Positions 12,357 through 37,743 of a stretch of DNA of 52,777 nucleotides are shown here, one piece after another (the first letter of the stretch is position 1; every line of letters begins with the position of its first letter). The position numbers and the translations under genes are program-made. Origin of the DNA: a virus. Taxonomy: Duplodnaviria > Caudoviricetes. The notes under the pieces are model-generated. The model ran no database searches. It was not told the origin of the DNA and saw nothing but the letters and a program-made list of their open reading frames with translations. The DNA lies in the IMG/VR virus record IMGVR_UViG_3300033273_000162, positions 1 through 52,777 of that record. One strand, given 5' to 3'.

Positions 12357-15300
12357 TCAACCCTCCTCTTCTACTGATAGTTCGACTTCAACCTCTAGTG
12401 GATCGATATCCTTACGGGTTCCTTGGACGAAGTAGAAGGATTCTCCTCCACCAATGAAGATCTTATTATCTTCAATCTTCTCAACCCATGCATGATGATC
12501 ACCGATTGGAGTGAGTTGAACTGTGATGCTGTCCTCATCAACGAGAGCAGTCCAGTATTCTGGAAGTTCAACAACATCACTTGCCTTACCACGAACATAG
12601 ACGCCATGCTCAGGACCTTCAAGAGATCCATAACGTAGTTCGTGATTTTCCTTAGTTGGGTGAGGAATTACGAACGACTTGCTGGTAGCACCAAACGAAC
12701 CATTTACATAAAGTTTGTAACTGGTGTTTGTGTTGCTCTGGTTGATCGCAACGTTCTGACTTGCGTCCATGACAAGGGCAGTTGGACCGCCATTTGTCTT
12801 GAAGTGCCACTTGCGATTACCATCAATACGCTCGACGATATCACCAACTGCAGTTCCAGGACCATAGTTGCCTGCGCTATTACAATATGCCATTCTATAA
12901 CCAATAGTAGTGCTACCATTTTTGTGAATGATAGAACTATAACCACCAGATTGACCTGCAATGGTAATACCATCACTATTATCTGCAGGAAGATCAAATC
13001 TAGATGTTCTATTATTGAATACGCGGAAGATACTCGTAGTAAAGTTAGTGTTATAAACACCTAAGAGTTCAGTACCAGTTGTACTATTTGTAGTAGAGAA
13101 CCTTGCGTTCCAGGAAGAACCAGATCCTCTAAACTGAAGACCACCAGCAAAAGTAAAGTATTTGTTGCTAGCAGAAACGTTGATTGCATTATCAACAGAT
13201 GGATTTAAAGTCAGCGTACCAGTCATGGTATCGCCAGACTTCAATACGTTGAGAGAAGCAGCACCAGTTAGATTACCGCTGATTGTTCCTGCAGTGAAGT
13301 TGCCATTGGCATCACGAAGAACAGCGGTATTTGCTACATTGTTGCTAGCAAATGTAATGTTACCAGCGTTCCAAATAACTTGGTTGTTGATTGTGAAGTT
13401 ATTTGCTCCACCAACCTGAACGTTAAGTGATCCAGATCCAGTTCCAGCATTACCACCAGAAGCAAAGATACCAGCGTTATAAGAAGCAGCAGATGTGGAA
13501 GAGTTGAACAGAACTGCAGGAGTAGAAGCAGTTCCATCCTTTCTTCCAAGTCTCAAGTATGCAGTACCGCCATTACTTTCTAACTTAGCAACATCATATG
13601 TTCCAGTTTCATTGATCCAGAACTCTTGGAATGTAACTCTGTTACCAGCAGTACCAATAGTCTCTGCGGTATTAAATGTACCAGTGTTCAGGTAACCAGT
13701 GATCTGAGTCCAGTTAAGGCTGGTATCACCATCTGGAGATGTGAATGGATTGACATTCAGAATGACAATAGTACCAACACCCTGTGCGTTTGCATCATAT
13801 AGATTGACGGTTTGACCGTTCAGGAATGGAGTGGTAGTTAGTGCTTGTCCAGAAATATAGATGTCATAGTAGGTCTTGTTTGTTACCTGCTTGATTGTAA
13901 TTGCGTTTTGGAATTTCTTCTCGGACAAATATCCATTAATTCTGGTATCACTGATTTGATAGAAGTTAATGTTTCTAGCATCCTGATACCAAGCACCTTG
14001 TCTGTTATCAAGTTTGTCAGAGTCCATTCCAGTACCAGGACCATCGGACAATTGAGTCCAGACCTTATACCAGTTAGACCAAGTTGCAACACCAGTTCCA
14101 CTACCACGTAACCAAACATTATTATTGTCTGTAAATGCAAGTTGTCTTACACCACCATCAGCAGTAGCATCACTACCCTTACCTCTAATGGTCATGACTG
14201 CGTTAGCAGTACCACCATCAGCAAGAACGTTTGCGCTATTGTTGATGAAATTGACAACCGCACCTTCAGAGAAGGTATCTGGAGTAGGATCTGATGTTGG
14301 GTTGGATGTTTGAGATCTTAGTCTTAGTGTATTACCAGACTGTCCAGAAATATTAATATCATAAGAACCAGATAGTCTTAGTTTGTTCAGAGTACCAGAA
14401 GTTATGTTGAATGCATTCTGATAGAATGCGCCCTGCTGACCATCAAGTAAGTCAGCATCAAGACCACTTTGAGATCCTGTCTTCAGTTCAACAGATCCAT
14501 TGCCAACCAATCCAATATTGAATTGAGACTTCTTGAACTTAGCAACACCAACCGTTCCATATGCGTCACCAGAAGTTGTGTTTTCTGTTACTCTCAGGAT
14601 ATCCATTTGGATATCACCAAATCCTCTAATAGCAGTATTAACTTTAGCAGATAGGTTACCAGCAGTTGTTGGATTTCCTAGTGCAGGAGGAATTGTAATA
14701 GCAAAGTCATTCTGGAATCCAGAACCACCAGAAGTAACTACAACACTATCGATAGTTCCATTTCCATCAGTTGTGAAATTAGCATAGAGTCCAGTGCCAG
14801 TACCGCCTTGGATAGGTCCAACATTCTTGAGATCAAGGTTTGCTGTGTATCCAGATCCACCGCTGATGATAACAATATCATCAATGTACTCGTTCTTAGT
14901 ATTATTGGTATCAATAATAATTGGTGGTTCGGGTCTATCAAACTGTAAGAACGTTCCTGCAGGAATTGCTTGAGTCAGTGGATTGTTAATCTCAATTTCA
15001 ATATATCCTGTTTTATCAGTAATCGAACTGACAGTTGTGTTTGGATCAATACCACTATTGGTAGAAGATACTGTATGTCCAACTAAAATATTAGTTCTAG
15101 CAGAAACAGGGAAAGTTAGTTTGTTTCCGCTATTTGCAGCGGCAAGGAATGTTGCTTCGAAGTATCTCTGCTCAGCACCCTTGATCGTTTGAACAGCAGG
15201 AGAATATGTCTGATCACCACGTAGGAAAGTGAAGGAGTTTGCAGCATCCGAGTCGAATGCTAGTCTTGCTGTTGCAATAACACCAGATGTAATATCACCT

Positions 15301-18300
15301 GCTGCAACTTGGTTAGAAGATAGGGATACCCAGTTGAGATCATCGAATGCAGAGGTATTAACAACTCTGTTCAAATTAACAGTTACCGAATTGACATCAT
15401 CAATCGTATCTGTATCTACAATCTTAATGTTATTAACAATGTCACCATATAGTCTGCTCTCAATCAGTGCGTTAGCAGTTGCTTGAGTTCCACCACCAGG
15501 AGGTGCAGAGAATGTGATAGTTGGTGCAGAAGTATAACCATAACCACCTGTGTAACCGTTAGATTCGATGATAGTTACTGTGACAACTTGACCATTTGCA
15601 ATAGTACAAGTCGCTGCAGCGGTAACACCTGTAGATGGCGAAGTAATCGATACAGTTGGAGCTGAAGTATATCCAGAACCAGAATCTGTAATCGAGATAG
15701 AATATACAACACCTTGGCGATATTCTGTGGTCTGAATAGTACCACCGCTATTACTTCCAGTGTAAATGCTTCCAACAGCACCAAAGTCCAGTGCGGCATT
15801 TACAGTGATTCCTAGATATAGACTATCAACATCATTGTCTAGGATATAAGATGCTGCAGGGACAGGTGGATTTGCATTAGGATTTCCCTCAACAATTGCA
15901 ATGTCACCAGCAAGAGCACCCTCTAGTTTCAGTCTTTCTGCATCACTTGCAACAGTGAAGACACTGAATGGTCTGAGTGCTGGAATCTGGTCGATAGAAA
16001 TCTTACCAGAATCAGTAAGTTCAACCAGTGCTCTAGGAACTGGGTTCGTAGAATATGCTTTGTTGATGTATGGACCGAGATTGTTGGTAATATAATCCTT
16101 AACTGCTTTCTGTGTTGGTAGAACACTATTGCTAGATGTTGCACCACCCAAAGTATTGTCATCACTAAATCCAGTAACAACAATGTCACCACCTTTCAGT
16201 TTCAAGAATTCAACTTCAGAGATGGTAACCGTACCAGTAAAGGTAATTGCACCAGTTCTGTTCTCAATCTTAGCGAAGTAACCAACCTTGAAGTCACCTA
16301 GTTCGTCAGTACCAGAAGTATAAACACGACCGTAGTTTTCAGATACCTGCTCATTTGCTTCGATCTTAGTACCGCCGTTTTCTGGTAGTGCATTGTAGTC
16401 AGTACCTGCACCAGCAAATTCCCAAGTGTGGGAAGAACTATTAACAATAGATGGTCTGTGTAGTCTTACAGTAGCACCACTAAATGTTCCTAGGTCTGTA
16501 TTGACAACATTGTTAGTTGATTTATCTCTGAATACTGCTGCCTGATTGACAGTAAATGTTGCAGTGAATGGAGGACCAGAAGTTACATTATTGACACTAT
16601 CAATAAAGTAATCTACTGCAGAGTTCTCGCTCTCATATCCATCAATCTTGAGAATGTAGTGCTCTAGAGGTTCTCTTCCAAGACCACTAACTGTAAATTC
16701 AGTGAATCCTGTACCAGTTGCGGAACCAATTCCAGTGATGTTACCAACGTCGAATGGATACTCTTCTGCTCTATATCCTTTCGCTCTAAGAGCAAATGTA
16801 CCAAAGTTGGTAGCGGAGTTAGTAACAGATGCGTATCCACCACTGTCACAGAAGATACCATCTTGACAGAAGATAACGAAGACCGAAACCAACTGAGTGT
16901 AACCATCATTGACAACCTTGTAACCTGTACCACCAAAGGAAACAATCGTGAATGCCGAAGCAACCATCGATTTGCCCTGTGCTGGGTTAGAAACAGATCC
17001 ATCTTCCTCAATACCTGGGAATGGAACGTTTGGTTTAGCACACTTGTTACCATCGATTTCACAACCATTACCACCCTTGAAGGAGATAATAGAAGAGTTC
17101 TGAATGTATGGAGATGCCTCAATGTATGGTAGATCATCCCATACACCTCTAGGTGTGATATACTTGTTATCTGCGTCGTATAGAATTGCCTGTGTAGGTC
17201 TGTTTGGTGTTGGATCATACAGAGTTCCGTATGTCTGAGTTACACTGCCTCCCGCTAGAATGTCATCTAGAGTCTGGAACGAAGTTGTAATTGCAGTTGC
17301 GACATCGGAACATGCAGGGGATTGACCTTGACCATATACAGAAACTGCTTCTGCAACTTCTGTTCTTACAAACGTATGTACAGACTGTGGTAGGTGCTTA
17401 ACTGCATTTGTTGAAGCAGTAATAAAAGTATGTGTTGTTTGTGGTTCATGCTTGATAGCATTCTGTGCTGCAGCAACAAAAGTATGAGTGGAAGTATCGC
17501 TAGAAGTACCAACGTTAATTGTAAATGTTCCGTCTTGACGCTCAATAGCATTTGCCGCAGCACTTACAAATGTATGTGCTCCAGTGTAGGAAGAAGGACC
17601 AACATTAACATCAAACGTGTTTGGTGTTACGTTAGAAATTTGTAACCAGCGACCAGATGGATAATCATAACCAGCACGAGGATATGTCTTCTGAACACTG
17701 TTGTCATCTAACTCACATGTATAAGTCAAAGATCCATCAGCAACCTTGACATAATCACCATTGCTGAATCCATGATTAGTAACAGTAAATGTTACAATGC
17801 CTGTAGATGCATCATATGGTGCATTTGTTGGTGTATGTTGAGTTGAACCAACGGAAGTGATAGCAATAGACTGACCTGCATAAGGATCAGTTCCAGGACG
17901 AGGATATGTGTGAGTGGAATTATTTCCATCTAAAGCACATGTGAAGGAGAATGAGTTGTCTGTGAGTACAACACTACGTCCAACACCTAGACCATGCTGT
18001 CCTACTGTGACAGTCATGTCACCAGTAATAGGATTGTATGTAGCAGCAGATGGAGTGAAATACTTATTGGGACCAGAGGCACCAACATTTAAAGTAATAG
18101 TTGTATCAGTTTTTGCTGTGATAGGAATAGATCTACCAGCATAAGGATCAATACCAGGACGTGGATATGTCTTCTGCGACTGGTTGTTATCCATGTCACA
18201 GGTGAATGTCAGTGAATTGTCAGCAAGTACAATTCCCTCATCAATATCCAGTGTATGAGTTCCGATTGTTAGTACAAGATCTCCAGTTGCTGGGTCATAT

Positions 18301-21300
18301 GTTGCATTGGTTGGAGTGAATTGTACATCAGGACCAGAAGCACCAACATTAACAGTAAATGTGTTTGTGTCCGTAGCAATAACGTTTAGCTGATTAGCAA
18401 AAGCTGTTTGTCCATTCTGTGGATACTTATGCTCGGTCTTATTGCCGTCCATTGTACATGTGAATACAAAGGACTCTGGTTTAATAGTGATACTATCCGC
18501 AGTTGTTACGCTGTGTCCAGCACTTGTAATTACAAAGTTACCATTGGCAGGATCATATGTTGCAGAAGTTGGAGAGATCTGTGCTTTTGCTGGAGTTGCA
18601 GCAGCATCAATCGTGATGTTCCAATCTTCAAACTTATCTACAGTCGAAGTAACTTCAACAACATCATAAATCAGAATAGTAGAATTAGCAGCAGCACTTA
18701 CGAATGTATGTGCTACGCCAGCAGCAGAACCAGCATTACCTACATTACAAGTAATAATTGTAGATGGACCATTGACGCTTACTGCGCTAATTGCAAGACT
18801 CTTTCCATTGTTTCTATCTGTTGGAGAAGGACTTGCTAGGTTTCCACCACCATTAGAAGTACAACTGAATGTTAGTGCTCCCTCCTTAAATGCAATTCTA
18901 TCGTTGGTTGTGATAGGTGCATTAGGAGTAGGAATAGTTACGGTTACTTCACCGCTAGTGGAGTTGTATGTGGCGTTTGTTGGAGTAGTGCCAAGATAGT
19001 TACCATTGGTCCAGTTACGCATTGCATTGATTGCGTAATCTCTTGCTTTGGTAAATGCGTATCTGGTAGCTGGTAGTTCGGATGCAGGAACTCCAGTTAG
19101 TTGTCCGCCTGTGTAGTAAAGATTACCAGCAGAAACAATACCAGAGTTTCCTCCTAGAATTAGGTCTCTTCTTAGTCCAGCAAGAATATACTTAACATCA
19201 CGCTTACACTTAGTTCTATCTGGATTGTTTAGTGCTAGAGATGGATACTCTTCTAGAGTATCTGCTAGTGCTTGCTCTGCAATTAGATCAATGTTTCTAG
19301 CAATCAAGTAAGATCCATCTTGGAATCTAGACGTTGCTTGATTTGAAATGATATCAGTAAAGAGATATCCTAGGGTATCAATAGCAGATGCAACGTTAGC
19401 ACAAGTTGCACCAGCATTTCCTCCTGTCGTATCTTCCGTAACAGTAGGATCTTTGTATAGTGGGAGACTAGAATATACAGGTACAAAATCATCTTCTGCA
19501 TACAAACCAGAACCTGTGTTCCAGTTTCTCATTGCTAGGATAATGAGTTCTCTGGCTCTTTCGTATGCCCTTACAGTTTCTGTAATTTCATTATTGACAT
19601 ATCCAATCTGAGTTCCATCAACATAACGCTTTGCTGCTTCAACAGTATGGTAGTTTCCACCATACTCCAAGTCCATAATAATAGCATTAATAAAGTGCTT
19701 AACGTCTCTGTAGCACTTAGAGTCACCATTTGGAATATTAAATCCAGGATAGATTTTTTCTCCCTGTGTGCAAGACAGGAGAATATTTTCAACCTTTACG
19801 GTTTCTCCACTTGTTAGACCTGGGATTGCATTTGCTAGGGTGATTGTACCTATACCAGTGCCATTAGCATATGAGAAACCTGTAATGTTATACTGAGTTC
19901 CACCATATGTTACAGTACCGCCACTTACATAAGTATGTGAAAATGAGTTTGGTGTAGTATAAACATCAAACGTGGTGCCAGAAACATTCCATGCAGTGAG
20001 CCACTTTTGTGCAAATTCATCATTGATTTGCTTGACTACTTCATCTGCAATGAAATCTGTGTTCTGGCGAATTAGATTAACAGCATCTTGATATCTTCTC
20101 TCGACAAATGGTTGCTCAGAGAATTTGTTTGGAGAGTTTAGAAGCGATAGTGTTAGATAGTGAGATGCCGAACTTACAGTACAATTTGAAATCTGAGTGA
20201 TTCCTGCTGGACTTGCAATATCTTTTGCAATGACAAATCTTCTCGATCTGCCGTCAGCGTCATATAGTACCTTGAATACTCTTTGCTTTCCGTTGAGAAC
20301 CGATAGATCAGGTCCGCTGGTAGGCATACCAGAGATTGTAATCTCTTCGTTCTCTTTGAAATTGTGAATGTTTAGTCTGGTGTTTGACTCACCACCCGAT
20401 AAGATGTTAGTATATACGACTACACCACCATATTCTGGATCAGTGTAGTATGTTGGATCAATTTCAACTTGTACAATTGGTAGTGTAGTAGTTGTATCTG
20501 TTCCAGTAGAAATAACTTCACCTTCTGCTCTAATAGACAGAATGTCTAAAGAAACGAAAGATCTGAGATCATTGAATACAATGGGATCTGTTGGACTTGC
20601 TTGAGTTGCTTCTTCTGCATATGTCAATGCATTTGCATCTGCACTTACAAAAGTATGTACAGATGTATCTTGAGAAACTCCAACATTAACAGTAAATGTG
20701 TTAGTAGTTACTGCGCTAATAGACAACCATCTCTTATATGCAAAATCTGGTTGTCCATCACCAGCAGCAGGTCTTGGATATCTATGCTGTGATGCATTAT
20801 TATCCAATGCACAAGTGAATACTAGGGATTCTGGACTGATTAAGATTTTATCAGATAAGTTAAATCCGTGGTTTGCAACAGTGAATACAGCAAGACCAGT
20901 TGCTGGATCATAAGTTACATTTGTTGGTGTATAAGGTGTGCCTCTGTAATATTCAAAAGTTTCACCAAGGTTAAAGGAACCAGAGAGAACATCTACATCA
21001 ATTGAACCAGAGACGTATGCATCTCCCCCTGTGGTGCTATCGTACTGTACTTGGAGAACTTCACCCCTTGCACCAGTGTTTTCACCGCTTACAAGCGTTC
21101 CTACTTGCAGCGGAGCGGGTAAGTTTGTTCCTGTGTTACTTCCGAAAGTAACTCTAATTCTAGGTGGTCCAAAGATCTGGTGACCAATTGGGAATCTTCT
21201 GCCAAAGTCTCCACCAGCATTGGGGTCATAATAAACCCTTTGCTTGTCGTCAAATGTTACAGCAAAGTCCCAGGTGAATTCAGAGTCACCAAAGGAATCG

Positions 21301-22490
21301 ATAGCATCTCTAAATGTAATACCATTGATATAGTTTTTATCCCCAAACTTAAACATGTGTTTGCGGGGATTGCTTGGTCTGATAATTACCAGACGAAGGT
21401 TGTCACCAATAATAGAACAATCTGGTGGAATGGAAATTGGGTTATCTTCAACGTAATTACCACCAGCGATGATAACTGATTCTTTGACTCCAACTGATTG
21501 AGATGCAATCTGACATGCTCTCTTAATACTTCTTACAGGAGCAGCAGCAGATCTACCGTCGTTTTCATCATTACCAATTTGCTCGGAAACATAGACACGA
21601 CCACCAACGTCATTTGTTGCTAGGTTTAGAACATATTCGGTAGTAGCAACTTTGGTCGATTTATCACCAAGTAAAGGAGTTACCGATCTTGGGAAGATAC
21701 CATCTCCAGTCTGTCCATAGTATGGAAGGAGAGGACTATCTTCTCTATAACCTTCGTGTCTTAGATTTACTGTACCACTTAATACATCACCATCAGTGTG
21801 TGTAGGGGGAGTGGTTCCAGTTTGACCAGTATTGGTAGCTCTATAGATGTTACCTTGGAGATAAACAAAGGCATTTTCAAATAAAGTGACGTTTGGTTGC
21901 CACTGAGTACCACTAGAGTTCTGATAGATTTTAAAGTTTGGTGCTCTAAATTTAGCATCAGCAGTAACAAAGTTGTCGATGTCTAGGTTTAGAATTCTCG
22001 CCGTGTCTGAAATGATAGACGTAGAAGTTCTAATAGCACCATTAACGTCAAATTCATATGCAATTTCGTCAAGGAATGCTTCTGCCTGAGCACCAACACC
22101 ATTACCACCAGTAATAGTTACAGTAGGAGCAGTAGTGTAACCAAAACCAGGATCATCAACAACAATAGCAACGATTGCTCCAAATACTGGATTCGTCGAT
22201 GCTGTTGCTTGAATTCCACCTTCTTCAATTGGTAAGTCTGGAGCACTTAATGTAATAGATGGAGTTGTTGTGTATCCAGAACCAGGAGCAGTAACGGTAA
22301 CCTTTTCAACCTTTTTTCCCGTTCTATTAACACCAACACGAGGCAATTGGGTGCTTGGATCTAACTGCACCCTCATAATTTCTTTTTCGTCCGACCCAAC
22401 ACCCGAACGGATTGTCAATTCATCCGAACCAAGAATGACTGGTTTTTGCGAAGAAATTCTTTGCTTATCCGCATTAAATTCTAAACTCAT
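12357..22490 (-). CDS. Giant multidomain tail fibre (3377 aa)
   Basis: GSGYT.AP repeats, split pectin-lyase-like beta-helix, TPTNATYDP repeats, LDADLLDG fibre motifs, and the C-terminal ATSKSFVIPHP...GSLEGPE...LPEYW..LVDEDSITVQLTPIG domain typical of phage fibres. Confidence 0.88.
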   Translation of the reverse strand: MSLEFNADKQRISSQKPVILGSDELTIRSGVGSDEKEIMRVQLDPSTQLPRVGVNRTGKKVEKVTVTAPGSGYTTTPSITLSAPDLPIEEGGIQATASTNPVFGAIVAIVVDDPGFGYTTAPTVTITGGNGVGAQAEAFLDEIAYEFDVNGAIRTSTSIISDTARILNLDIDNFVTADAKFRAPNFKIYQNSSGTQWQPNVTLFENAFVYLQGNIYRATNTGQTGTTPPTHTDGDVLSGTVNLRHEGYREDSPLLPYYGQTGDGIFPRSVTPLLGDKSTKVATTEYVLNLATNDVGGRVYVSEQIGNDENDGRSAAAPVRSIKRACQIASQSVGVKESVIIAGGNYVEDNPISIPPDCSIIGDNLRLVIIRPSNPRKHMFKFGDKNYINGITFRDAIDSFGDSEFTWDFAVTFDDKQRVYYDPNAGGDFGRRFPIGHQIFGPPRIRVTFGSNTGTNLPAPLQVGTLVSGENTGARGEVLQVQYDSTTGGDAYVSGSIDVDVLSGSFNLGETFEYYRGTPYTPTNVTYDPATGLAVFTVANHGFNLSDKILISPESLVFTCALDNNASQHRYPRPAAGDGQPDFAYKRWLSISAVTTNTFTVNVGVSQDTSVHTFVSADANALTYAEEATQASPTDPIVFNDLRSFVSLDILSIRAEGEVISTGTDTTTTLPIVQVEIDPTYYTDPEYGGVVVYTNILSGGESNTRLNIHNFKENEEITISGMPTSGPDLSVLNGKQRVFKVLYDADGRSRRFVIAKDIASPAGITQISNCTVSSASHYLTLSLLNSPNKFSEQPFVERRYQDAVNLIRQNTDFIADEVVKQINDEFAQKWLTAWNVSGTTFDVYTTPNSFSHTYVSGGTVTYGGTQYNITGFSYANGTGIGTITLANAIPGLTSGETVKVENILLSCTQGEKIYPGFNIPNGDSKCYRDVKHFINAIIMDLEYGGNYHTVEAAKRYVDGTQIGYVNNEITETVRAYERARELIILAMRNWNTGSGLYAEDDFVPVYSSLPLYKDPTVTEDTTGGNAGATCANVASAIDTLGYLFTDIISNQATSRFQDGSYLIARNIDLIAEQALADTLEEYPSLALNNPDRTKCKRDVKYILAGLRRDLILGGNSGIVSAGNLYYTGGQLTGVPASELPATRYAFTKARDYAINAMRNWTNGNYLGTTPTNATYNSTSGEVTVTIPTPNAPITTNDRIAFKEGALTFSCTSNGGGNLASPSPTDRNNGKSLAISAVSVNGPSTIITCNVGNAGSAAGVAHTFVSAAANSTILIYDVVEVTSTVDKFEDWNITIDAAATPAKAQISPTSATYDPANGNFVITSAGHSVTTADSITIKPESFVFTCTMDGNKTEHKYPQNGQTAFANQLNVIATDTNTFTVNVGASGPDVQFTPTNATYDPATGDLVLTIGTHTLDIDEGIVLADNSLTFTCDMDNNQSQKTYPRPGIDPYAGRSIPITAKTDTTITLNVGASGPNKYFTPSAATYNPITGDMTVTVGQHGLGVGRSVVLTDNSFSFTCALDGNNSTHTYPRPGTDPYAGQSIAITSVGSTQHTPTNAPYDASTGIVTFTVTNHGFSNGDYVKVADGSLTYTCELDDNSVQKTYPRAGYDYPSGRWLQISNVTPNTFDVNVGPSSYTGAHTFVSAAANAIERQDGTFTINVGTSSDTSTHTFVAAAQNAIKHEPQTTHTFITASTNAVKHLPQSVHTFVRTEVAEAVSVYGQGQSPACSDVATAITTSFQTLDDILAGGSVTQTYGTLYDPTPNRPTQAILYDADNKYITPRGVWDDLPYIEASPYIQNSSIISFKGGNGCEIDGNKCAKPNVPFPGIEEDGSVSNPAQGKSMVASAFTIVSFGGTGYKVVNDGYTQLVSVFVIFCQDGIFCDSGGYASVTNSATNFGTFALRAKGYRAEEYPFDVGNITGIGSATGTGFTEFTVSGLGREPLEHYILKIDGYESENSAVDYFIDSVNNVTSGPPFTATFTVNQAAVFRDKSTNNVVNTDLGTFSGATVRLHRPSIVNSSSHTWEFAGAGTDYNALPENGGTKIEANEQVSENYGRVYTSGTDELGDFKVGYFAKIENRTGAITFTGTVTISEVEFLKLKGGDIVVTGFSDDNTLGGATSSNSVLPTQKAVKDYITNNLGPYINKAYSTNPVPRALVELTDSGKISIDQIPALRPFSVFTVASDAERLKLEGALAGDIAIVEGNPNANPPVPAASYILDNDVDSLYLGITVNAALDFGAVGSIYTGSNSGGTIQTTEYRQGVVYSISITDSGSGYTSAPTVSITSPSTGVTAAATCTIANGQVVTVTIIESNGYTGGYGYTSAPTITFSAPPGGGTQATANALIESRLYGDIVNNIKIVDTDTIDDVNSVTVNLNRVVNTSAFDDLNWVSLSSNQVAAGDITSGVIATARLAFDSDAANSFTFLRGDQTYSPAVQTIKGAEQRYFEATFLAAANSGNKLTFPVSARTNILVGHTVSSTNSGIDPNTTVSSITDKTGYIEIEINNPLTQAIPAGTFLQFDRPEPPIIIDTNNTKNEYIDDIVIISGGSGYTANLDLKNVGPIQGGTGTGLYANFTTDGNGTIDSVVVTSGGSGFQNDFAITIPPALGNPTTAGNLSAKVNTAIRGFGDIQMDILRVTENTTSGDAYGTVGVAKFKKSQFNIGLVGNGSVELKTGSQSGLDADLLDGQQGAFYQNAFNITSGTLNKLRLSGSYDINISGQSGNTLRLRSQTSNPTSDPTPDTFSEGAVVNFINNSANVLADGGTANAVMTIRGKGSDATADGGVRQLAFTDNNNVWLRGSGTGVATWSNWYKVWTQLSDGPGTGMDSDKLDNRQGAWYQDARNINFYQISDTRINGYLSEKKFQNAITIKQVTNKTYYDIYISGQALTTTPFLNGQTVNLYDANAQGVGTIVILNVNPFTSPDGDTSLNWTQITGYLNTGTFNTAETIGTAGNRVTFQEFWINETGTYDVAKLESNGGTAYLRLGRKDGTASTPAVLFNSSTSAASYNAGIFASGGNAGTGSGSLNVQVGGANNFTINNQVIWNAGNITFASNNVANTAVLRDANGNFTAGTISGNLTGAASLNVLKSGDTMTGTLTLNPSVDNAINVSASNKYFTFAGGLQFRGSGSSWNARFSTTNSTTGTELLGVYNTNFTTSIFRVFNNRTSRFDLPADNSDGITIAGQSGGYSSIIHKNGSTTIGYRMAYCNSAGNYGPGTAVGDIVERIDGNRKWHFKTNGGPTALVMDASQNVAINQSNTNTSYKLYVNGSFGATSKSFVIPHPTKENHELRYGSLEGPEHGVYVRGKASDVVELPEYWTALVDEDSITVQLTPIGDHHAWVEKIEDNKIFIGGGESFYFVQGTRKDIDPLEVEVELSVEEEG
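17340..20935 (-). repeat. Six copies of a ~95-105 aa beta-rich domain (TPTNATYDP..G...FTC..D.N...YPR...VNVG...HTFV) inside the giant fibre
   Basis: Copies at about 20935-20625 and 18990-18680, plus four nested copies in 18580-17340; visible in the translation. Confidence 0.9.
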
Positions 22491-27515: not shown

Positions 27516-27708
27516 TTTTGATTAACTCGTGCAGTAGTGCCTTGATTTCAGAGATTTCTTCCTTCAAGTTATTTATGTCTTCTATAGCAGTGGTGAGGTT
27601 CTTTGATTTTTTCCTCGCTTCAATTGCGGAGCTATCGTTATTAATGATAGCTCCTGTGTTCATGTCTCTTACAAGACCATCATATCCTTTTACTTTCGCG
27701 AAATCCAT
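27502..27708 (-). CDS. Small conserved protein (68 aa) with a C-terminal coiled coil
   Basis: KVKGYDGLVRDMNTGAIINND...DINNLKEEISEIKALL; translationally coupled to the upstream VrlC-like gene. Confidence 0.85.
   Translation of the reverse strand: MDFAKVKGYDGLVRDMNTGAIINNDSSAIEARKKSKNLTTAIEDINNLKEEISEIKALLHELIKNGNS
27570..27576 (-). promoter_or_regulatory. Possible internal late promoter ATAAATA for the 1483-aa gene
   Basis: Lies within the 68-aa ORF, about 55 nt upstream of the ATG at 27515. Confidence 0.5.
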
Positions 27709-30700
27709 TAGAAAGATGCGACTGCTCTAATGTCTTGGATCTTAGGAACGAAAGATGGATCCACCGTAGTCATTACAATCTTGATAGCAAAGGAAGAGAA
27801 CTCCTCTAGTTCAGAAACACTGTATTTTAGATCTTGGTAGGAAGATTGTTTTTCAACAATTCCCGAGATGCTATTTTCAGTTGTTGCCAATTCTAGTGTG
27901 TCTGGGAGACCAGTTTCGTTAAAGAATACCCAATCAATGTCTTCGAAGTTTTCCTGACTAGATGCCTTCTTAAACTTGTAAAGAACTTGAATGTTTGCAA
28001 TGTCTTTGACATTAGCAGTTAGATGAACATCAATAGATGTTCCTGGGTTTCCAATAACAACTTCCTTGGTTACATATTTTGCAACAGAAGAACTATTCTT
28101 GGAAGTATTTTCTGGAACAAAATCAACACCATTTGTGTAAGTAACCTTACCAACCTCAAGATAATTATTTTCTTCGTCTGGTTGATTTGGATACTTGATG
28201 AAATCTCCTACCCTGAAGATATCAGCAAGTTGGTCACTAGTGACTGCATTTCTATTATAGAAAGCAGAGTCAATGATTTTGTCAGTATAACTGTCATTAA
28301 TTGGATTTGTATCAACTCTTACGGTCAGTTCTTGTGTCTGACTGTTCCAAATAACAGTCTTACCAGTAATGATATTATCATAAGTTTCATTTAGACTCGA
28401 TGGGTTACGTGCTACAATCGTAGCGCCATCATCAATACTTGCAAAAACTTGTACTGGATTGGAATCGACACTAACATTTGTTAGAGATGCTTGGTTGCCA
28501 AGATCTACAAATTCTCCTTTTTGGAAGAACTGACTTGTCTTGACTCTTACATATACAACCTGTCCATCTACTCTAGCAACAGTACCAGATGTCTTGGAAG
28601 TTCTTCCTTGAATTGTCTGGTTTGCTTGTAGTTCAGTTCCTGCATTTCCTGCAAGTTCGAATTGATATAGTGGGTAGAACTCAATAACTTGATCTCTTCT
28701 GCCAAATCTATTTTCTGTACCAGATGCATTCTCAACTCTGTTAGAAACAGTCTTGACAGAAGCACTAGACAAATCAATGATTGGAGACAGATTAGAAGAT
28801 GTGGAAGATAGTTTTAGTTTATATGTTAGAGAAGAACTAATATTATTAAGAGTTTCGTTAATATCAGAAGCAACTAGTTTCTGATTTGTGAAATAATGTG
28901 GTTCATTTAAGAAGGTCTTCTCATACTCTGTTTGAGAATAAGAATTGTAGTTAGTTGTGCTAGAATCAACTGGAATTACATTAGTTGTTTTCACAGAAAC
29001 ATCTAGTTTTGTTCCAGCAAATGTTAGGTAATGGACCTGTGGATATAGAGTTTCAAACTTTCTGTTATATGTTGCATATACAGAAGTTCCACCACCAATA
29101 GCATTTCCAGCTGCCTGAGATGGAGATACAATATTATAGTAGTCAATACCAGAGTTTGTAACTTCAAACAGATTGCTATTGATAGTTGCTGCTGTAATAC
29201 CACCAGTCTCTAATGCAGTTCTAAAGAACACATAAGATTTTCCACCATCTTCAAATCCGTTGTCTCTGTGGTTGATCTTCACAATCGCGTTGTTATTCTT
29301 AAACAACTTAGATGTGGATGCAGAGTTAGAAGATGCGTTAGTTTCAATTGGATTTGCACCCAAGAGTTCGTAACCAAGACTATCATTCTTGATAAGAAGT
29401 TCTGCAGATCTTGTAATATCAAATTCTGCACGATACATCTTGAACTTAAGATCTTCAAAGATATCTTCTGTCCAACTCTCTGTATTCTGTGAGCGATATA
29501 CCGAACCAAGAGATGGTTGAGTTGTAATAACAGTGCTAGTAGCAATGTCTGTCTCACCAAGTCTAGATACCCACAGTTGATAATCAGTAGAATCGGTTTC
29601 TACTACGAGAGCATACTCTGTATCATTCTGTAGATATACTGGATAATCGAACGCAAAGTGTGTAGGCGTGGTAGAATTAGTTACCTCACCTGCATCAGTT
29701 GCTACACCCATTCTAACTGCTGGTGTATCAATCTCAATAAATGTTTGGATTTCACATCCACCAGCGCCGTTTCCAACGCCTTTAACGACCACAGAAGGTG
29801 CTTCGGTGTAACCAAAACCACTTAGTGATACTTCAGCGTTGTAAATTTTACCACCAGAAACACTAATGCTCGCAGTAGCACTCGCGCCACCAGGAAGTTG
29901 AGGACTTTCGATAGTTAGAATTGCACTATCATAGTTGAGACCTGGGTTGGTAACTCTAATATCAGATACCTTTCCACTGTCTTTTGCAATAGAAAGTACA
30001 AGACTTGTATTGTCGCGAGCATTTGCTTCGGTGACAGATGGAATAATTAGATCTTCGTTTTGTACAAACGATTTTCCATTGTGGTTGCTCAACACTACAG
30101 TATAAACTTGCTCATTTGTTAGACTGTACTTACCAGAAGCAGTAGCAACTAGTTCTACATTGTTCTTATCAAAGATCTTGAGAATAGGACCAGATGCAGC
30201 AGAAGAAGCACCTGTTACACTTTCTCCTTGATATACAGCAACATTACCGCTAGCAAAACACTTAAGGAAAGTATTTGGCGATAGTGTTTTTTCACTTCCA
30301 GGAACAATGTTCTTCGCTGGTTTTTCAGCATCAACATTTGAAATGTATGCCTTGACTGGAATATTTGTACTCTTCTTAGAGAAAAAGAGATCTACGCCAG
30401 TTACAAAACATCCACCCTCTAGGTTTTCGACCTTAAATGTTTGTGCTAGAGGATTAGGTCTAATAGGATTATCAGTGTTGCTCTCAATTAACTGAACACC
30501 TTCATTAGACTTGAAGTAAGATGGTTTTGTGGATACAATGCTAGCAGGATTCTCTGGGAGGAGACCTGTAGCATAATACTTAACTTCGGTGTAACTATCT
30601 ACTTCTTCTTTAGGAGCATTGGTTGGACTAGAAGTAAATCTGAATGTCAAGATTCCAGAAGTAATAGAAACTTCTTCTGCAGAAGTGTCATACGCTACTG

Positions 30701-33700
30701 TATTGATATCTCCAGTCCATGTAGTATTCTCTAGAGGTGGAAGACCAGCAGGTACGATAATCAAACCACTAGCATTTCCATATTCATCAGTGGTGATTTC
30801 ACCATTGAAGGCAGATAGAGAGTTTCCAGCGATTCCAGTGAATCTCAAGTCTGGATTTACCCAACGGTTAATATCTCTTCCTTCCAAGAAGACATACATT
30901 CTTGTGTTAGGTTTCATTCTGCGAATGACATATCTAACAGGAATGCTTCTAGCAAAGAATGCCAACGAAGTGGATACTAGACTCTCGCCTACAGACTTGG
31001 TTGGAACACCTTTACCTACCTCATTGTTTTGAGGACTGATGTTTGAAGAACTGGAGACAGATGCACTAGAAACAGAAGTAACTGCTTGCTGTGTATTAAC
31101 TTCTCCTAGCGAATTAATCGAAGTGAAAGATGTAGAAGTTCCTACCCAATTGACTACAAAGGAATTGTAGAGACTGGAGAAACTCTCTTTTACATCATCT
31201 TTTGCAAGGAAAATATTGAAGAGACTTGTATTAGTATCAACAACGATTGGTTCTTCGCTTTGGTCATACCAGTGATCGATAGATGGGGATACTTCTCCGT
31301 CTCCAACATACTGAAGTACAACAAATGGATTTGGATTTAGTGTCTTAGAAGCAAAATCGTTACCGAGTAAAGATAGTGGGGAGTATGGTAGAGTTACCAT
31401 ATTACCAGACTTCTTATATCCAGAAACAGATCTCTGATCTTCCCTTACATTTACTTCTTTTAGATTTACAGAATCTTCTTTTGCTTGTGGGCGCAGAACA
31501 GACTGCTGACTATCTACAGAACACTTATAATCCAAGGAAGATAGATTGCCAACTTTATGTGCTTCGAAGTTATCAACGAAGAAACCAGACTTAAACCTAT
31601 CAAGACCAATTTCATCTTTGACTTGCATGTTTAGAGCTTGTTGCTCCAGAATGCTGAGTGTGGTATAGTATTCGAGACGTTCGATACGCTTCTCCAACTT
31701 ACCAATGTCGCGCATTGTGTAGCGACGATTATCGACAGGAGTAATTCTTACGTCTTTAGTTGTCTTTGTAAATGCTGGAATATATGCATAGAACAAAGGA
31801 ACAGCGTCATCAATAGGATCTGGTTTAGATGGGTTGAGGGAAGAGTTACCTTCCTTGACGATAAAGTTTCCTTTCTTGTCGAGGAAAACACCATCAATAC
31901 GATCCAAATACTGAACTTGACTAAACGAGAATGTGTATTCTAGTCCTTGGTCTGGAGCAGGAGTGCTAGCAACAACTGCACCAGGACCAGAGAAAGATCC
32001 TCCAGTTACTTCTAAAGAAGACTTATTCAAGAAACCTGGGATAATAGAATTGCTATCAACAACAGGACGGAAATCAATAACATTCTTGAGTTCTAGATTT
32101 CCATGCACAGAAGAGTTGAAAGATGGAATTTCATCTTCGGGAACACCTGCTTCATGTAGATAACTGTCGATAGTACAGAAGTCACCCTGTGACTGTACAA
32201 AGTAATCAAAAGCAATTAGAAGTTGTCCTGTAGATGGTTCGAATCCTGGTTTCAACACGATTCTTGAGACATCATAAATTGTGTCTCTTTGACCATTATC
32301 AAACGTATATCTAGAAGTTACATCTGTACCAGAAACTAGATTACCAGCAGTATCAACAGAAGGTGGTTGAGAAGATGTTCCTTCATACACATACTTCAGT
32401 TTAAATGCATCTGTGTAAGATAGAGTTTCGACTACCTCACTATCATAATCAGTTCCTCTAAATGGAATAATACGATCACCAGCAGAAGCAATAACAATTC
32501 TCTTGTTTCTTACAACTGTCTTGAGTCTTGGTTTTGCGTTGGAAACTTCCAATGTAGCAGTAAGTTTCAACTTTGGATATGTTCCATTAGCAGGAACAGT
32601 TCCAAAATAAGTCGAAGGTAGTTGCAGACTGATACTACCAGAAGTCAAACCACTTGCAGTATCAGTAGAAGAAGAAATCTCAACTGCATCTTCTGCAACA
32701 TATACAATGTCTCCCTTGGAGATGTTTGGTGCATCTCCTGGGTCTATAACTGTAATAATATAATTTTCTTCAGTAAATCTAGCAAACCTTTGTGTTCCAA
32801 ATGGAAGTTGTGCAGCAAAAGTAATACTTCCACCTGCAGCAGCTGCAGTAGTTACGAAATCTCTACGGAAGTAATACTTGATCTTAGTATCATCACCACC
32901 AGCAGAAAGTTTAGATACTTGCTTGCTTCCTGTTGGGAACAAGAGAGTACCAGAGTTTGTATTAATAACTCTTGGTCTTAGTCTTACAAGACTAGTATTG
33001 GTTACGTCTCCAGGAAGCGCGGTGTCTAGATAAATTCTTGTCTTAGACGATCCTTGCTGTCTAGTTGCATACTGAACAATTGCTCTAACAAGATTATTCG
33101 AGTCATCAGAGAACTGAATAAGATCTCCTTGCTGTAGCAAGATAGATGCATCTGCACTAAAACTAGTGGATTCAATAAATTTACTTCCTTGAGAACCAAA
33201 GAATGTAAAACTGGTGACAGACTTAATTTCAGAGTATGTCTGACTATCAACTACAACATCAGCAGAGAAAGTATTTGCGTTTCCAGAACCATATGTGCAA
33301 CCAACAGACTTCACATTTTGTGGGGTGTATGTTGTTACTGTATTTCTAAACAGTACAGGAACAACTGCAGCTGCAGAGTTTGGAGTAGATGCACCTTCTG
33401 GTTGCTGTACAGTAATAGCAGGAGGTGCTGCATACTCAAGACTTACTGCTCTTCTATTACTAATAGTAGCATTATAGATTCTACCTTCATTTGTTCTTCC
33501 AATAGCAATCTTAGAACCATCGAACTCTAGTCCATTGATGAGAAGAGTTGTTCCCTCTGCATATCCAAGTCCTCTATTCTGAACAACAAAGTGAGAAATA
33601 GTATTATCTTTTGCAATCTTTACAGTGTTTCCATTCTCATCTCTAATTGTCTCACCAGATTTAAATTTACCAGAGAGAGTTTTTACAAATAAGATTTTTC

Positions 33701-35804
33701 CTGTTGTGTATGAACCAGTAGAAGATCCTTCGACTACACCATATGCAGAACTATCAATACCAAAGACATAAGAACCTTCGTCAAAAGCATTGGTTCCAGA
33801 TGGTACAGATTCTAGAATAATTCTAGTGAAGAACTGTGGATCAAAATAAGAGTAACCAAAAGTGGTATTATAAGCACTGGTTCCTGCCTCTAGGCGTCCT
33901 TTCGATAGAATTACATCGGAATCGGAATTAAATCCAGGTCCTCTGTTTTGTAGGAAGAAATTACTTGGTTTTGTTTTACCAATAACAGGTGTAATCGTGT
34001 CAGAATAATCTACAATGAAACCAAATTCATTAGAGTTTGTGCTAGCATCCGCTTCACTCAAGAAAATTCTTCTTTTATACTCATTGTCAGAAAGATCATA
34101 TTCAAGTAGAAGTTGCTCTAATTCATTCTTAGGTCCATATACAGTGAGTTCTAAGAATTGAACAGATTCAGATGGGTTGATTAGTGGTTTATTTGTTGTA
34201 GCAAAAGATAGAGTTTTGAAACTTCCAATAGCAGTTGGATTTCCCAATTCACTTCTAGTCTTAATAAAGAAGAGTTCTCCAAACTGAGTTTGGAATGTGG
34301 CATCTGTTACAGCACCAATTAGAGTAACTGGATTTGTAATTTGTAATGTAATAGTTCTAATGCCATCATCTGCAGTGAAGATTTTTCCTCTTCTATCAAT
34401 CGTCTGTCTATGATCTGTAGATAACTCAGTATTGTTTAAACCAATAGATCCATCATTAAATGTAGAATATACAAATACATCTGGATATGCAGTAAGGTCA
34501 GATCCTTCTTTGTTTAGAGGAACACTACCAAATACATTAGTTACACTATAGGTAGGAAGACCTTTGCTCTTAAGATTTACATTATCACTGGAGAGACTTT
34601 CTCTTGCTTTATTAATTTCTAGATATTTGGTCTCTTTATTTACAATTTCATATCCTTTTACATATGCTTTACCAGGACCAATGCTGGCAACCATTTTTCT
34701 AGCAGACTCTTCTGCTGTGTATCCATTATAACGACCAAATTCATCAGCACCATATAGACCTTTATTACCGTCTTTTTGTGCCCACTCTCTGACATCAACA
34801 GAGAAATTATCTACAACATAATCTCCACTCTCATCAAATGTTCTTCTTGCGAGAGTTTGCTCTAGAACACTAAAGTCTGTTCCTTGAATTTTTCTTTGAA
34901 TAACACCCTTCGATACTGTTAAGAGTTGAATGAAATTCTTATCAGTAATAGCACCTAGTGCAAACTCTTTTAGTTCTAAAGAAATCTTAAGTCTATGTGC
35001 TCCAGGTGCAGTGTAGTTGCTGGAACCAATAGAATTATCATATAAACTTGCTTCTGCTTCTGGAGTTACAATTTCTTCTTTGATTGTAAATCCAACTTTT
35101 GCGGAAGGTTTATTGTAATATTCGTCGATAACGAGGAGTTCTTCGTCATTGCGAACAAAATAACCATTGACAAAATAGATACCTTCTTCTACTTTTACAG
35201 CAGATCCATATCCCATTGCTGGACTTTCTAGAGATGTGGTTTCTCCTGTGTCAGGATCTGTTACTTCAATGCTAGTAGGTAGAACACTGCCATCAGTACC
35301 AACAACTAGAAGTGGTGTATTGACACCATTTACTACTTCTAGAGTTTCACCTTGACGGAATCTTGGTTCTGTATTAGAATTACCACTGTTAATGTAATTA
35401 ACAAATAGCGTATCTGCGGAGTCTCCAGTCGCTAACTTTGTTGCTAGGATGGTAGCAGTAACACCAGATGTAAGACCATTTAGCTGCTGTCCTACTAATT
35501 GACTGATGTCATACTTCTTATAAACAATATCGTCTCCTTCCGAGACAGCAACCTCAGAAACAGACGACAGTTTAACGTAATCTAATTTTGTATTGAGACC
35601 AACTTCACCAGGAATTACAAGTTCTCCCTGCTTGAAAGCATACTTACCAAAGCTTTCAATTTGATTTTGGAGAATTGATTGTACCTGAGTTAATTCCCTA
35701 CTTTGGATAGAGTATCCAGGACGGAATAGAATCTTATAAAAATTCTTACTCGCGTCAAAGTCCTCGTAATAAGGATTTACATTTAGGTTAGTCTTCTGTG
35801 GCAT
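27708..35804 (-). CDS. VrlC/DUF4815-like large virion structural protein (2698 aa)
   Basis: NLNVNPYYEDFD..KNFYKILFRPGYSIQSRELTQVQSILQNQI, APGAHRLKI, LARRTFDESGDY, RRYTMRDIGKLEKRIERLEYYTTLS, NPLAQTF, PKIQDIRAVA. Confidence 0.88.
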   Translation of the reverse strand: MPQKTNLNVNPYYEDFDASKNFYKILFRPGYSIQSRELTQVQSILQNQIESFGKYAFKQGELVIPGEVGLNTKLDYVKLSSVSEVAVSEGDDIVYKKYDISQLVGQQLNGLTSGVTATILATKLATGDSADTLFVNYINSGNSNTEPRFRQGETLEVVNGVNTPLLVVGTDGSVLPTSIEVTDPDTGETTSLESPAMGYGSAVKVEEGIYFVNGYFVRNDEELLVIDEYYNKPSAKVGFTIKEEIVTPEAEASLYDNSIGSSNYTAPGAHRLKISLELKEFALGAITDKNFIQLLTVSKGVIQRKIQGTDFSVLEQTLARRTFDESGDYVVDNFSVDVREWAQKDGNKGLYGADEFGRYNGYTAEESARKMVASIGPGKAYVKGYEIVNKETKYLEINKARESLSSDNVNLKSKGLPTYSVTNVFGSVPLNKEGSDLTAYPDVFVYSTFNDGSIGLNNTELSTDHRQTIDRRGKIFTADDGIRTITLQITNPVTLIGAVTDATFQTQFGELFFIKTRSELGNPTAIGSFKTLSFATTNKPLINPSESVQFLELTVYGPKNELEQLLLEYDLSDNEYKRRIFLSEADASTNSNEFGFIVDYSDTITPVIGKTKPSNFFLQNRGPGFNSDSDVILSKGRLEAGTSAYNTTFGYSYFDPQFFTRIILESVPSGTNAFDEGSYVFGIDSSAYGVVEGSSTGSYTTGKILFVKTLSGKFKSGETIRDENGNTVKIAKDNTISHFVVQNRGLGYAEGTTLLINGLEFDGSKIAIGRTNEGRIYNATISNRRAVSLEYAAPPAITVQQPEGASTPNSAAAVVPVLFRNTVTTYTPQNVKSVGCTYGSGNANTFSADVVVDSQTYSEIKSVTSFTFFGSQGSKFIESTSFSADASILLQQGDLIQFSDDSNNLVRAIVQYATRQQGSSKTRIYLDTALPGDVTNTSLVRLRPRVINTNSGTLLFPTGSKQVSKLSAGGDDTKIKYYFRRDFVTTAAAAGGSITFAAQLPFGTQRFARFTEENYIITVIDPGDAPNISKGDIVYVAEDAVEISSSTDTASGLTSGSISLQLPSTYFGTVPANGTYPKLKLTATLEVSNAKPRLKTVVRNKRIVIASAGDRIIPFRGTDYDSEVVETLSYTDAFKLKYVYEGTSSQPPSVDTAGNLVSGTDVTSRYTFDNGQRDTIYDVSRIVLKPGFEPSTGQLLIAFDYFVQSQGDFCTIDSYLHEAGVPEDEIPSFNSSVHGNLELKNVIDFRPVVDSNSIIPGFLNKSSLEVTGGSFSGPGAVVASTPAPDQGLEYTFSFSQVQYLDRIDGVFLDKKGNFIVKEGNSSLNPSKPDPIDDAVPLFYAYIPAFTKTTKDVRITPVDNRRYTMRDIGKLEKRIERLEYYTTLSILEQQALNMQVKDEIGLDRFKSGFFVDNFEAHKVGNLSSLDYKCSVDSQQSVLRPQAKEDSVNLKEVNVREDQRSVSGYKKSGNMVTLPYSPLSLLGNDFASKTLNPNPFVVLQYVGDGEVSPSIDHWYDQSEEPIVVDTNTSLFNIFLAKDDVKESFSSLYNSFVVNWVGTSTSFTSINSLGEVNTQQAVTSVSSASVSSSSNISPQNNEVGKGVPTKSVGESLVSTSLAFFARSIPVRYVIRRMKPNTRMYVFLEGRDINRWVNPDLRFTGIAGNSLSAFNGEITTDEYGNASGLIIVPAGLPPLENTTWTGDINTVAYDTSAEEVSITSGILTFRFTSSPTNAPKEEVDSYTEVKYYATGLLPENPASIVSTKPSYFKSNEGVQLIESNTDNPIRPNPLAQTFKVENLEGGCFVTGVDLFFSKKSTNIPVKAYISNVDAEKPAKNIVPGSEKTLSPNTFLKCFASGNVAVYQGESVTGASSAASGPILKIFDKNNVELVATASGKYSLTNEQVYTVVLSNHNGKSFVQNEDLIIPSVTEANARDNTSLVLSIAKDSGKVSDIRVTNPGLNYDSAILTIESPQLPGGASATASISVSGGKIYNAEVSLSGFGYTEAPSVVVKGVGNGAGGCEIQTFIEIDTPAVRMGVATDAGEVTNSTTPTHFAFDYPVYLQNDTEYALVVETDSTDYQLWVSRLGETDIATSTVITTQPSLGSVYRSQNTESWTEDIFEDLKFKMYRAEFDITRSAELLIKNDSLGYELLGANPIETNASSNSASTSKLFKNNNAIVKINHRDNGFEDGGKSYVFFRTALETGGITAATINSNLFEVTNSGIDYYNIVSPSQAAGNAIGGGTSVYATYNRKFETLYPQVHYLTFAGTKLDVSVKTTNVIPVDSSTTNYNSYSQTEYEKTFLNEPHYFTNQKLVASDINETLNNISSSLTYKLKLSSTSSNLSPIIDLSSASVKTVSNRVENASGTENRFGRRDQVIEFYPLYQFELAGNAGTELQANQTIQGRTSKTSGTVARVDGQVVYVRVKTSQFFQKGEFVDLGNQASLTNVSVDSNPVQVFASIDDGATIVARNPSSLNETYDNIITGKTVIWNSQTQELTVRVDTNPINDSYTDKIIDSAFYNRNAVTSDQLADIFRVGDFIKYPNQPDEENNYLEVGKVTYTNGVDFVPENTSKNSSSVAKYVTKEVVIGNPGTSIDVHLTANVKDIANIQVLYKFKKASSQENFEDIDWVFFNETGLPDTLELATTENSISGIVEKQSSYQDLKYSVSELEEFSSFAIKIVMTTVDPSFVPKIQDIRAVASF

Positions 35805-37719: not shown

Positions 37720-37743
37720 TATTTATATTTATAGCAATATTTA
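37720..37743 (-). promoter_or_regulatory. Cluster of late promoter motifs upstream of gp8
   Basis: TATAAATA at 37720-37727 and 37726-37733 (overlapping), plus TAAATA at 37738-37743. Confidence 0.8.

Follow-up and report, generated by a model that had tools for sequence, protein, structure and literature searches.

A probable four-level self-insertion of one beta-barrel-type domain in a giant virion protein of a marine cyanophage

We analyzed a stretch of 52,777 nucleotides (positions 1 to 52,777 of the IMG/VR virus record IMGVR_UViG_3300033273_000162; hereafter the window), whose source virus is, judging from its sequence matches, a T4-like marine cyanophage. A single open reading frame (ORF) on the minus strand (window 12357-22490) encodes a 3377 amino acid protein that most probably carries, at residues 1304-1717, a four-level insertion of one domain of ~100 amino acids and beta-barrel type into copies of itself, in the order A(B(C(D)C)B)A. 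This recursive insertion, first proposed in a preliminary description made from the DNA letters, is supported by several lines of evidence, including: (i) the types of piece into which the domains are cut; (ii) the parsing of homologous proteins as a stack; (iii) co-variation and distance correlation between the pieces; (iv) a confident AlphaFold2 (AF2) model; and, weakly, (v) the docking of two of the pieces predicted as separate chains. All pieces of the nest are found in the translation of this one ORF, in which residue r corresponds to window position 22490-3(r-1).

Anatomy of the barrel domain and of the nest

The repeat unit is an all-beta domain of ~100 amino acids, which occurs in the protein as two whole stand-alone copies and as the four-fold nest. 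Its profile, a hidden Markov model (HMM) of 101 positions, was built from 409 distinct contiguous copies in 201 related sequences. Opening motifs are located at residues 521, 1169, 1306, 1392, 1479, and 1553, and HTF closing motifs at residues 612, 1261, 1639, 1669, 1687, and 1705, together with one weak HTY motif at residue 852. The first two openings and closings belong to the stand-alone copies S1 (window 20622-20933, minus strand; residues 520-623; HMM positions 2-99, E = 2.5e-37) and S2 (window 18672-18989, minus strand; residues 1168-1273; HMM positions 2-100, E = 3.5e-26). S2 immediately precedes the nest, within the same loop of the surrounding host repeat. A plain tandem repeat was rejected as a description of residues 1304-1717, as openings and closings would then alternate; instead, four openings occur in series and are followed by four closings. 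The motif positions and the domain HMM thus confirm the succession that the preliminary description had placed within window 17340-18580.

All pieces of the nest lie on the minus strand and are joined by linkers of 2-7 residues. The A opening (window 18333-18581; residues 1304-1386; HMM positions 1-83, E = 6e-24) and the B opening (window 18072-18323; residues 1390-1473; HMM positions 1-83, E = 1.3e-28) both break after the strand that bears the NVG motif. The C opening (window 17847-18059; residues 1478-1548; HMM positions 2-71, E = 9.5e-23) breaks one strand earlier, before NVG. The innermost domain, D, is whole and contiguous (window 17541-17840; residues 1551-1650; HMM positions 1-99, E = 4.3e-45). 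It is followed by the C return piece, which provides an NVG strand and a closing strand (window 17448-17534; residues 1653-1681; HMM positions 72-100, E = 1.6e-06), by the B closing strand and return linker (window 17394-17444; residues 1683-1699; closing matrix score 24.2, with no preceding NVG strand), and by the A closing strand, which is of HTFVRT type (window 17340-17384; residues 1703-1717). The break points that had been read by eye, after NVG in A and B and earlier in C, with C resuming after D, are therefore those given by the HMM boundaries.

Five closings obtained scores of 23.5-36.2 with the closing-strand matrix, while none of 177,474 shuffled positions scored above 4.08. The outermost (A) closing is divergent, with a matrix score of -3.2, and was located through its HTF motif alone; 44 aligned nests all share its H, F, and R. 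The NVG strand scored -13.1 and -6.4 before the last two closings, against 11-24 where this strand is present.

Within the contiguous copies of the domain, the single Cys of the opening and the His that begins the closing strand are present in 100% of the 409, and an additional His in 91%. On the basis of this conservation, the Cys/His set could be a candidate metal site, or some other clasp joining the returned strand to its barrel. A separate observation concerns window 19767-20024 (minus strand; residues 823-908), where two weak matches to the domain occur in permuted order, HMM positions 57-93 followed by 2-43 (E = 0.097 and 0.75), the first of them containing the HTY at residue 852 with no upstream opening. 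This segment looks like a degenerate, circularly permuted copy of the barrel, judging from the order of the matches.

Pairing of openings and closings

The way in which each barrel is cut predicts what has to come back: a barrel cut before the NVG strand needs both this strand and a closing strand later in the chain, while one cut after it needs a closing strand only. In the nest, the strand missing from C (HMM position 72 onward) is the first piece back after D, and the next two closings lack an NVG strand. Extended to 121 proteins, last-in-first-out (stack) pairing yielded 581 type-concordant against 83 discordant non-adjacent pairs; first-in-first-out pairing yielded 204 against 278, and random pairing was concordant in 58% of cases. 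An automatic parse of the same proteins produced 527 informative and 438 uninformative top-of-stack matches, and ran free of conflict in 66, of which 43 were fully closed. Shapes other than the one described here also occur, and nesting depth in the homologues, one of the checks named in the preliminary description, is 3 to 9 among those that parse cleanly.

The most elaborate case is the homologue P0022, in which a hand parse of residues 1003-2982, with which the automatic parse agrees, gave 19 domains on nine levels with several branch points, each piece resuming the most recently opened domain. One of its domains is cut after position 25 (2-25) and resumes at 26-84 once eight inner domains have been closed, and a second mid-domain break (2-58) is resumed at 56-99. 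Breaks of this kind mean that a pairing of closing strands merely with each other cannot explain the pieces. A further homologue, P0035, shows another feature between residues 1952 and 2471, where some of the copies inserted in a larger nest run from the closing strand round to the NVG strand and are thus circularly permuted. It also has an extra insertion point at profile position 48-51, and its pieces balance when both the permutation and this site are allowed.

Co-variation was calculated from 180 unique nests (effective number of sequences, Neff, 70) and expressed as the share of column pairs falling in the top 1% of scores. For the openings of A, B, C, and D, in this order, the shares were 0.4, 0.0, 0.3, and 1.1% with the D closing; 0.6, 0.5, 1.9, and 0.0% with the returned C strand; 1.0, 0.4, 2.4, and 0.2% with the C loop and closing; 0.7, 1.2, 0.4, and 0.2% with the B closing; and 8.3, 1.5, 1.1, and 1.1% with the A closing. 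Every closing block hence has its largest share of top-1% pairs with the opening predicted by nesting, strongly for A and C and modestly for D and B. Of the 12 variable columns in the B closing, 7 pair best with a column of the B opening, to which 26% of the columns belong, and co-variation also couples return-linker residues 387 and 389 to outgoing-linker residue 182. When distances between sequences were compared, all four closings correlated best with the opening predicted by nesting (0.57, 0.75, 0.65, and 0.68), and the signal on the nested diagonal persisted after the shared signal had been regressed out (0.28, 0.32, 0.14, and 0.13). In addition, the A opening and the A closing have the highest variability of all parts (1.22 and 1.23 bits), the other parts having 0.85-0.92 bits.

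AF2, suggested for the segment in the preliminary description, was run on residues 1296-1730 with 44 sequences and returned a confident all-beta model (mean predicted local distance difference test score, pLDDT, 91.8; predicted TM-score, pTM, 0.83). All four closings are strands in this model, within blocks of pLDDT 89-96. Each is formed by a strand followed by a short second strand, and D ends likewise when it is predicted in isolation (pLDDT 93.4, pTM 0.85). The A opening and the A closing, predicted as a two-chain complex, reached a score of 0.47, compared with 0.02 for the best of three controls, with a contact agreement between runs of at least 86% and a partner pLDDT of at least 58. Of 80 solved complexes, 58 reach the mark used, as do 2 of 110 mismatched pairs; the prediction used custom alignments, and these calibration counts are therefore approximate. 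The docking gives weak support to the predicted A pairing.

Several points weigh against the nested arrangement. The automatic parse met conflicts in 55 of the 121 proteins, with 169 pieces matched deeper in the stack, 107 that matched nothing, and 156 domains that were never closed. One of these proteins, P0035, was resolved by hand once closing-first, circularly permuted copies were allowed. A and B are of one piece type, and their closings were assigned by co-variation, matched variability, and analogy with relatives only. For the B closing the margins are small, with 15 against 8 top pairs and correlations of 0.65 against 0.62 and 0.60, and in the C closing strand proper the four variable columns find their best, low-scoring partners in D, not in C. 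Mutual information is moreover inflated by common ancestry, at a Neff of just 70. The contacts between returned strands and barrels are inferred, the AF2 model being itself a prediction, and the docking of A falls in a range (scores of 0.60 or less) in which the mark is reached by just 7 of the 80 solved complexes and by both of the passing mismatches.

These points leave room for other explanations, which have to be weighed against nesting. One of them holds that there is no true nesting: the 90-residue closing tail would form a beta-meander of its own, or pair in a crossed fashion, and A to C would be truncated barrels able to fold with no strand handed back to them. DSSP analysis of the model gives eight short consecutive strands with short loops, which is compatible with a meander, and the shared piece type of the A and B closings also leaves space for it. 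Against this stand the balance between the numbers of openings and closings in nests of many shapes, the identity of the strand that C lacks with the very first strand returned, and the resumption of the mid-domain breaks of P0022 after balanced inner pieces. First-in-first-out pairing, moreover, fits the piece types less well than random pairing, and both co-variation and distance correlation lie on the nested diagonal. We therefore regard this explanation as very unlikely.

Phage fiber proteins are usually trimers, and the closings might accordingly complete the barrels of a neighboring chain in an oligomeric fiber by three-dimensional domain swapping. The HABAS domains of the cyanobacterial RNA polymerase insertion Si3, which are recursively inserted, are reported to swap elements (PMC11515920). 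For the cyanophage protein such an exchange appears improbable, though somewhat less so than the absence of nesting: the monomer model is confident throughout (pLDDT 91.8, pTM 0.83) and the linkers between the pieces have just 2-7 residues, which favors closure within one chain. A chance array of short motifs, or an artefact of assembly, is hardly credible and was rejected; the HMM E-values of the openings and of D range from 1e-22 to 1e-45, the closing matrix scores far exceed those of the shuffled positions, and the same collinear module is present in 80 independent contigs as well as in named phage genomes.

Conservation, host repeat, and genomic setting

All 80 IMG/VR loci compared contain the nest in collinear alignment (62-72% identity), and 79 of these cover its residues 12-414 or more; the exception, L079, begins at the end of its contig. 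The four barrels inside the nest share a mutual identity of just 30-57%. This difference indicates that the nest is old, predates the divergence of these phages, and was copied as a unit. Exact canonical nest strings were detected in 47 of the 121 proteins, at 1-5 per protein and 104 in total, and the largest number of nest-profile matches in one protein is six (P0002). The layout of the 3377 amino acid protein is shared by its closest orthologues, P0054, P0084, P0086, and P0089. Between the same conserved flanks, five homologues have 5, 5, 8, 9, and 10 openings, in agreement with the earlier idea that the length of the structure can change without moving its termini. The barrel domain belongs to what is, by its profile matches, a narrow family, with 663 cluster representatives at E <= 0.001 among 1.84 billion.

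The nest and S2 are located within a helical host repeat. Repeat 1 (residues 914-996) aligns with repeat 2 (window 18993-19247, minus strand; residues 1082-1166) at a score of 138, and S2 plus the nest replace a 36-residue loop of repeat 1. The preliminary description had put the nest before the last helix of a phycobiliprotein-like unit, a placement that stands in weaker form. The Pfam family PF00502 (Phycobilisome protein) matches the helical host with 15.5 bits, below its cut-off of 22.2, although the homologue P0042, at 27.9 bits, lies above it, and a PDB phycoerythrin alpha chain matches the protein at E = 0.026. The candidate for the closing helix, the stretch after the nest (window 17235-17333, minus strand; residues 1720-1752), aligns weakly and collinearly with residues 1023-1055, in the helix that ends repeat 1, at a score of 40, compared with 28 +/- 5 and a maximum of 53 for shuffled sequences, and a Pfam search of the stretch after the nest gave no match. 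It should be noted that the helical repeats (window 18993-19751, minus strand; residues 914-1166) start with C-x-R-D-V-K and end with M-R-N-W. Should a virion protein indeed have a light-harvesting fold resembling that of its host, this would merit attention by itself.

The gene is probably a virion structural gene of tail-fiber type. PHROG 5342 ("tail fiber protein") matches the whole protein in 6 stretches (E = 0, 3897.7 bits); the profile match is significant, and the function suggested by it rests on an annotation name. The neighboring genes match baseplate wedge and virion structural PHROGs (219, 261, 438, 5449, and 6005). A tblastn search with the nest segment found matches in 324 phage records, of T4-like marine Synechococcus and Prochlorococcus phages, and 60 of these hold at least 80% of the nest, including Sf-FP1, ACG-2014j, S-RIM32, S-H9-2, Syn1, and S-RIM44; a megablast search of the region against phage genomes gave no match. 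RefSeq labels the relatives variously as structural protein, tail fiber, or baseplate wedge subunit.

Two further giant ORFs are encoded in the same module, at window 27708-35804 (2698 amino acids) and 37741-48000 (3419 amino acids), both on the minus strand. In a scan of the whole window with the domain HMM, barrel copies were confined to the 3377 amino acid gene, with none in these two ORFs. Pfam gave no match at E <= 0.1 when searched with the whole protein. A match to PF07602 (DUF1565) was obtained at window 21399-21578 (minus strand; residues 305-364), with 22.3 bits against a cut-off of 20.3, covering just positions 2-60 of the 257 of the profile. This domain may itself be split by everything between S1 and the nest; a Pfam search of residues 1761-2000 gave no match, and none therefore to its second half.

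Proposed architecture and comparison with known systems

Under the nested arrangement, B with its contents would be placed in the hairpin loop of A that separates the NVG strand from the closing HTF strand, C and D would occupy the same NVG/HTF hairpin loop of B, and D, whole, would in turn lie in the turn joining the last two strands of the N-terminal part of C. The chain would pass outward through three unfinished barrels and build the tip domain D, and on its return would supply each barrel with its missing strand or strands, in reverse order. The out-and-back course follows from the nested topology, its geometry being inferred, as is the rod- or branch-like shape of the nest. Together with S2, this arm would sit in the loop of the helical, weakly phycobiliprotein-like host repeat, so that both of its ends lie together and its size could change without disturbing the host. 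Taking into account the weak fold likeness of the barrels to the inserted barrels of phage endosialidases, our best guess is that the nest could serve a baseplate or fiber protein as a rigid side arm of adjustable size, showing barrels to the host surface.

A bolder and rather doubtful proposal is that these proteins are natural "dendrimers" made of a single chain and following a recursive grammar, with the returned strands clasped to their own barrels and with arms that act as multivalent binders of the host surface, their size tuning host range. A single barrel family may then accept inserts in at least four of its loops and also tolerate circular permutation, in trees of up to 19 domains and nine levels, and a clasp, perhaps a metal site formed by the invariant Cys and His, might avert mispairing among near-identical barrels.

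The nest would represent a second, unrelated domain family with recursive self-insertion, which forms a conserved module of four levels in marine viruses that are abundant and is extended in relatives to nine levels with branching. It offers a natural system for studying how domains that are discontinuous and nearly identical avoid mispairing as they fold, and an account of how giant virion proteins may grow by the addition of whole domains at a loop; for protein design, it suggests a scaffold. Nesting would also explain why these genes resist ordinary domain annotation.

With regard to fold, the single-domain model had no PDB match at E 0.001 in Foldseek searches (best E = 0.031). The best likeness was to endosialidase chains (K1F, NF, and phi92; TM-score normalized by query, TMq, 0.50-0.56), followed by Uba1/Uba6 (TMq 0.29-0.52, E = 0.037-0.16), the P22 coat protein (0.38-0.43), and also FlgT. 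The Pfam families PF16190 (E1_FCCH; 16.4 bits, cut-off 29.5, profile positions 2-24 of 70 only) and PF23891 (DUF7243; 17.7 bits, E = 0.0029, cut-off 27) remained below threshold. In BFVD the same fold was confined to other cyanophage proteins, and the whole four-domain model found only strings of FN3/Ig domains in the PDB, at an uninformative TMq of 0.08-0.16. The small barrel of endosialidases, ubiquitin E1 (FCCH), and the P22 coat protein is itself an inserted domain; none of these barrels is known to be inserted into itself.

Among other phage proteins, the T4 tail sheath protein gp18 has nested domains (I in II in III), and the tip of T4 gp37 forms an out-and-back needle. As these proteins are generally described, gp18 differs from the cyanophage nest by nesting unlike domains on fewer levels, and the gp37 needle by consisting of three intertwined chains in place of a string of barrels.

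The insertion of a domain into its own copies is very rare. If recursive self-insertion is taken as one family on at least two levels with closing in reverse order, the cyanophage nest very probably displays it on four levels. Recursive self-insertion is known from Si3; for nested domains in cyanophage proteins, a search of literature listings found no paper. Membership of the barrel in the sandwich-barrel hybrid motif (HABAS; CATH 2.40.50.100) is not indicated, with no RNA polymerase chain among the 45 PDB Foldseek matches listed (ranks up to 50) or among the 5 PDB sequence matches at E <= 10 in a profile search, and no homology of the cyanophage barrel to the HABAS domains of Si3 was found.

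The closest known case is Si3 of the cyanobacterial RNA polymerase beta' subunit (RpoC2), in which one small beta family is likewise inserted in its own loops, level upon level and with branching. In a 2026 survey that covered 48,551 insertion events, a six-level recursive architecture in Prochlorococcus rpoC2 serves as the complex example (PMC13114784). The two systems differ in that Si3 is part of a polymerase, whereas the cyanophage nest belongs to a virion protein. By our parse, the relatives of the latter reach depth 9 (P0022), compared with the six levels given for Si3 in that survey, and also include closing-first, permuted copies (P0035).

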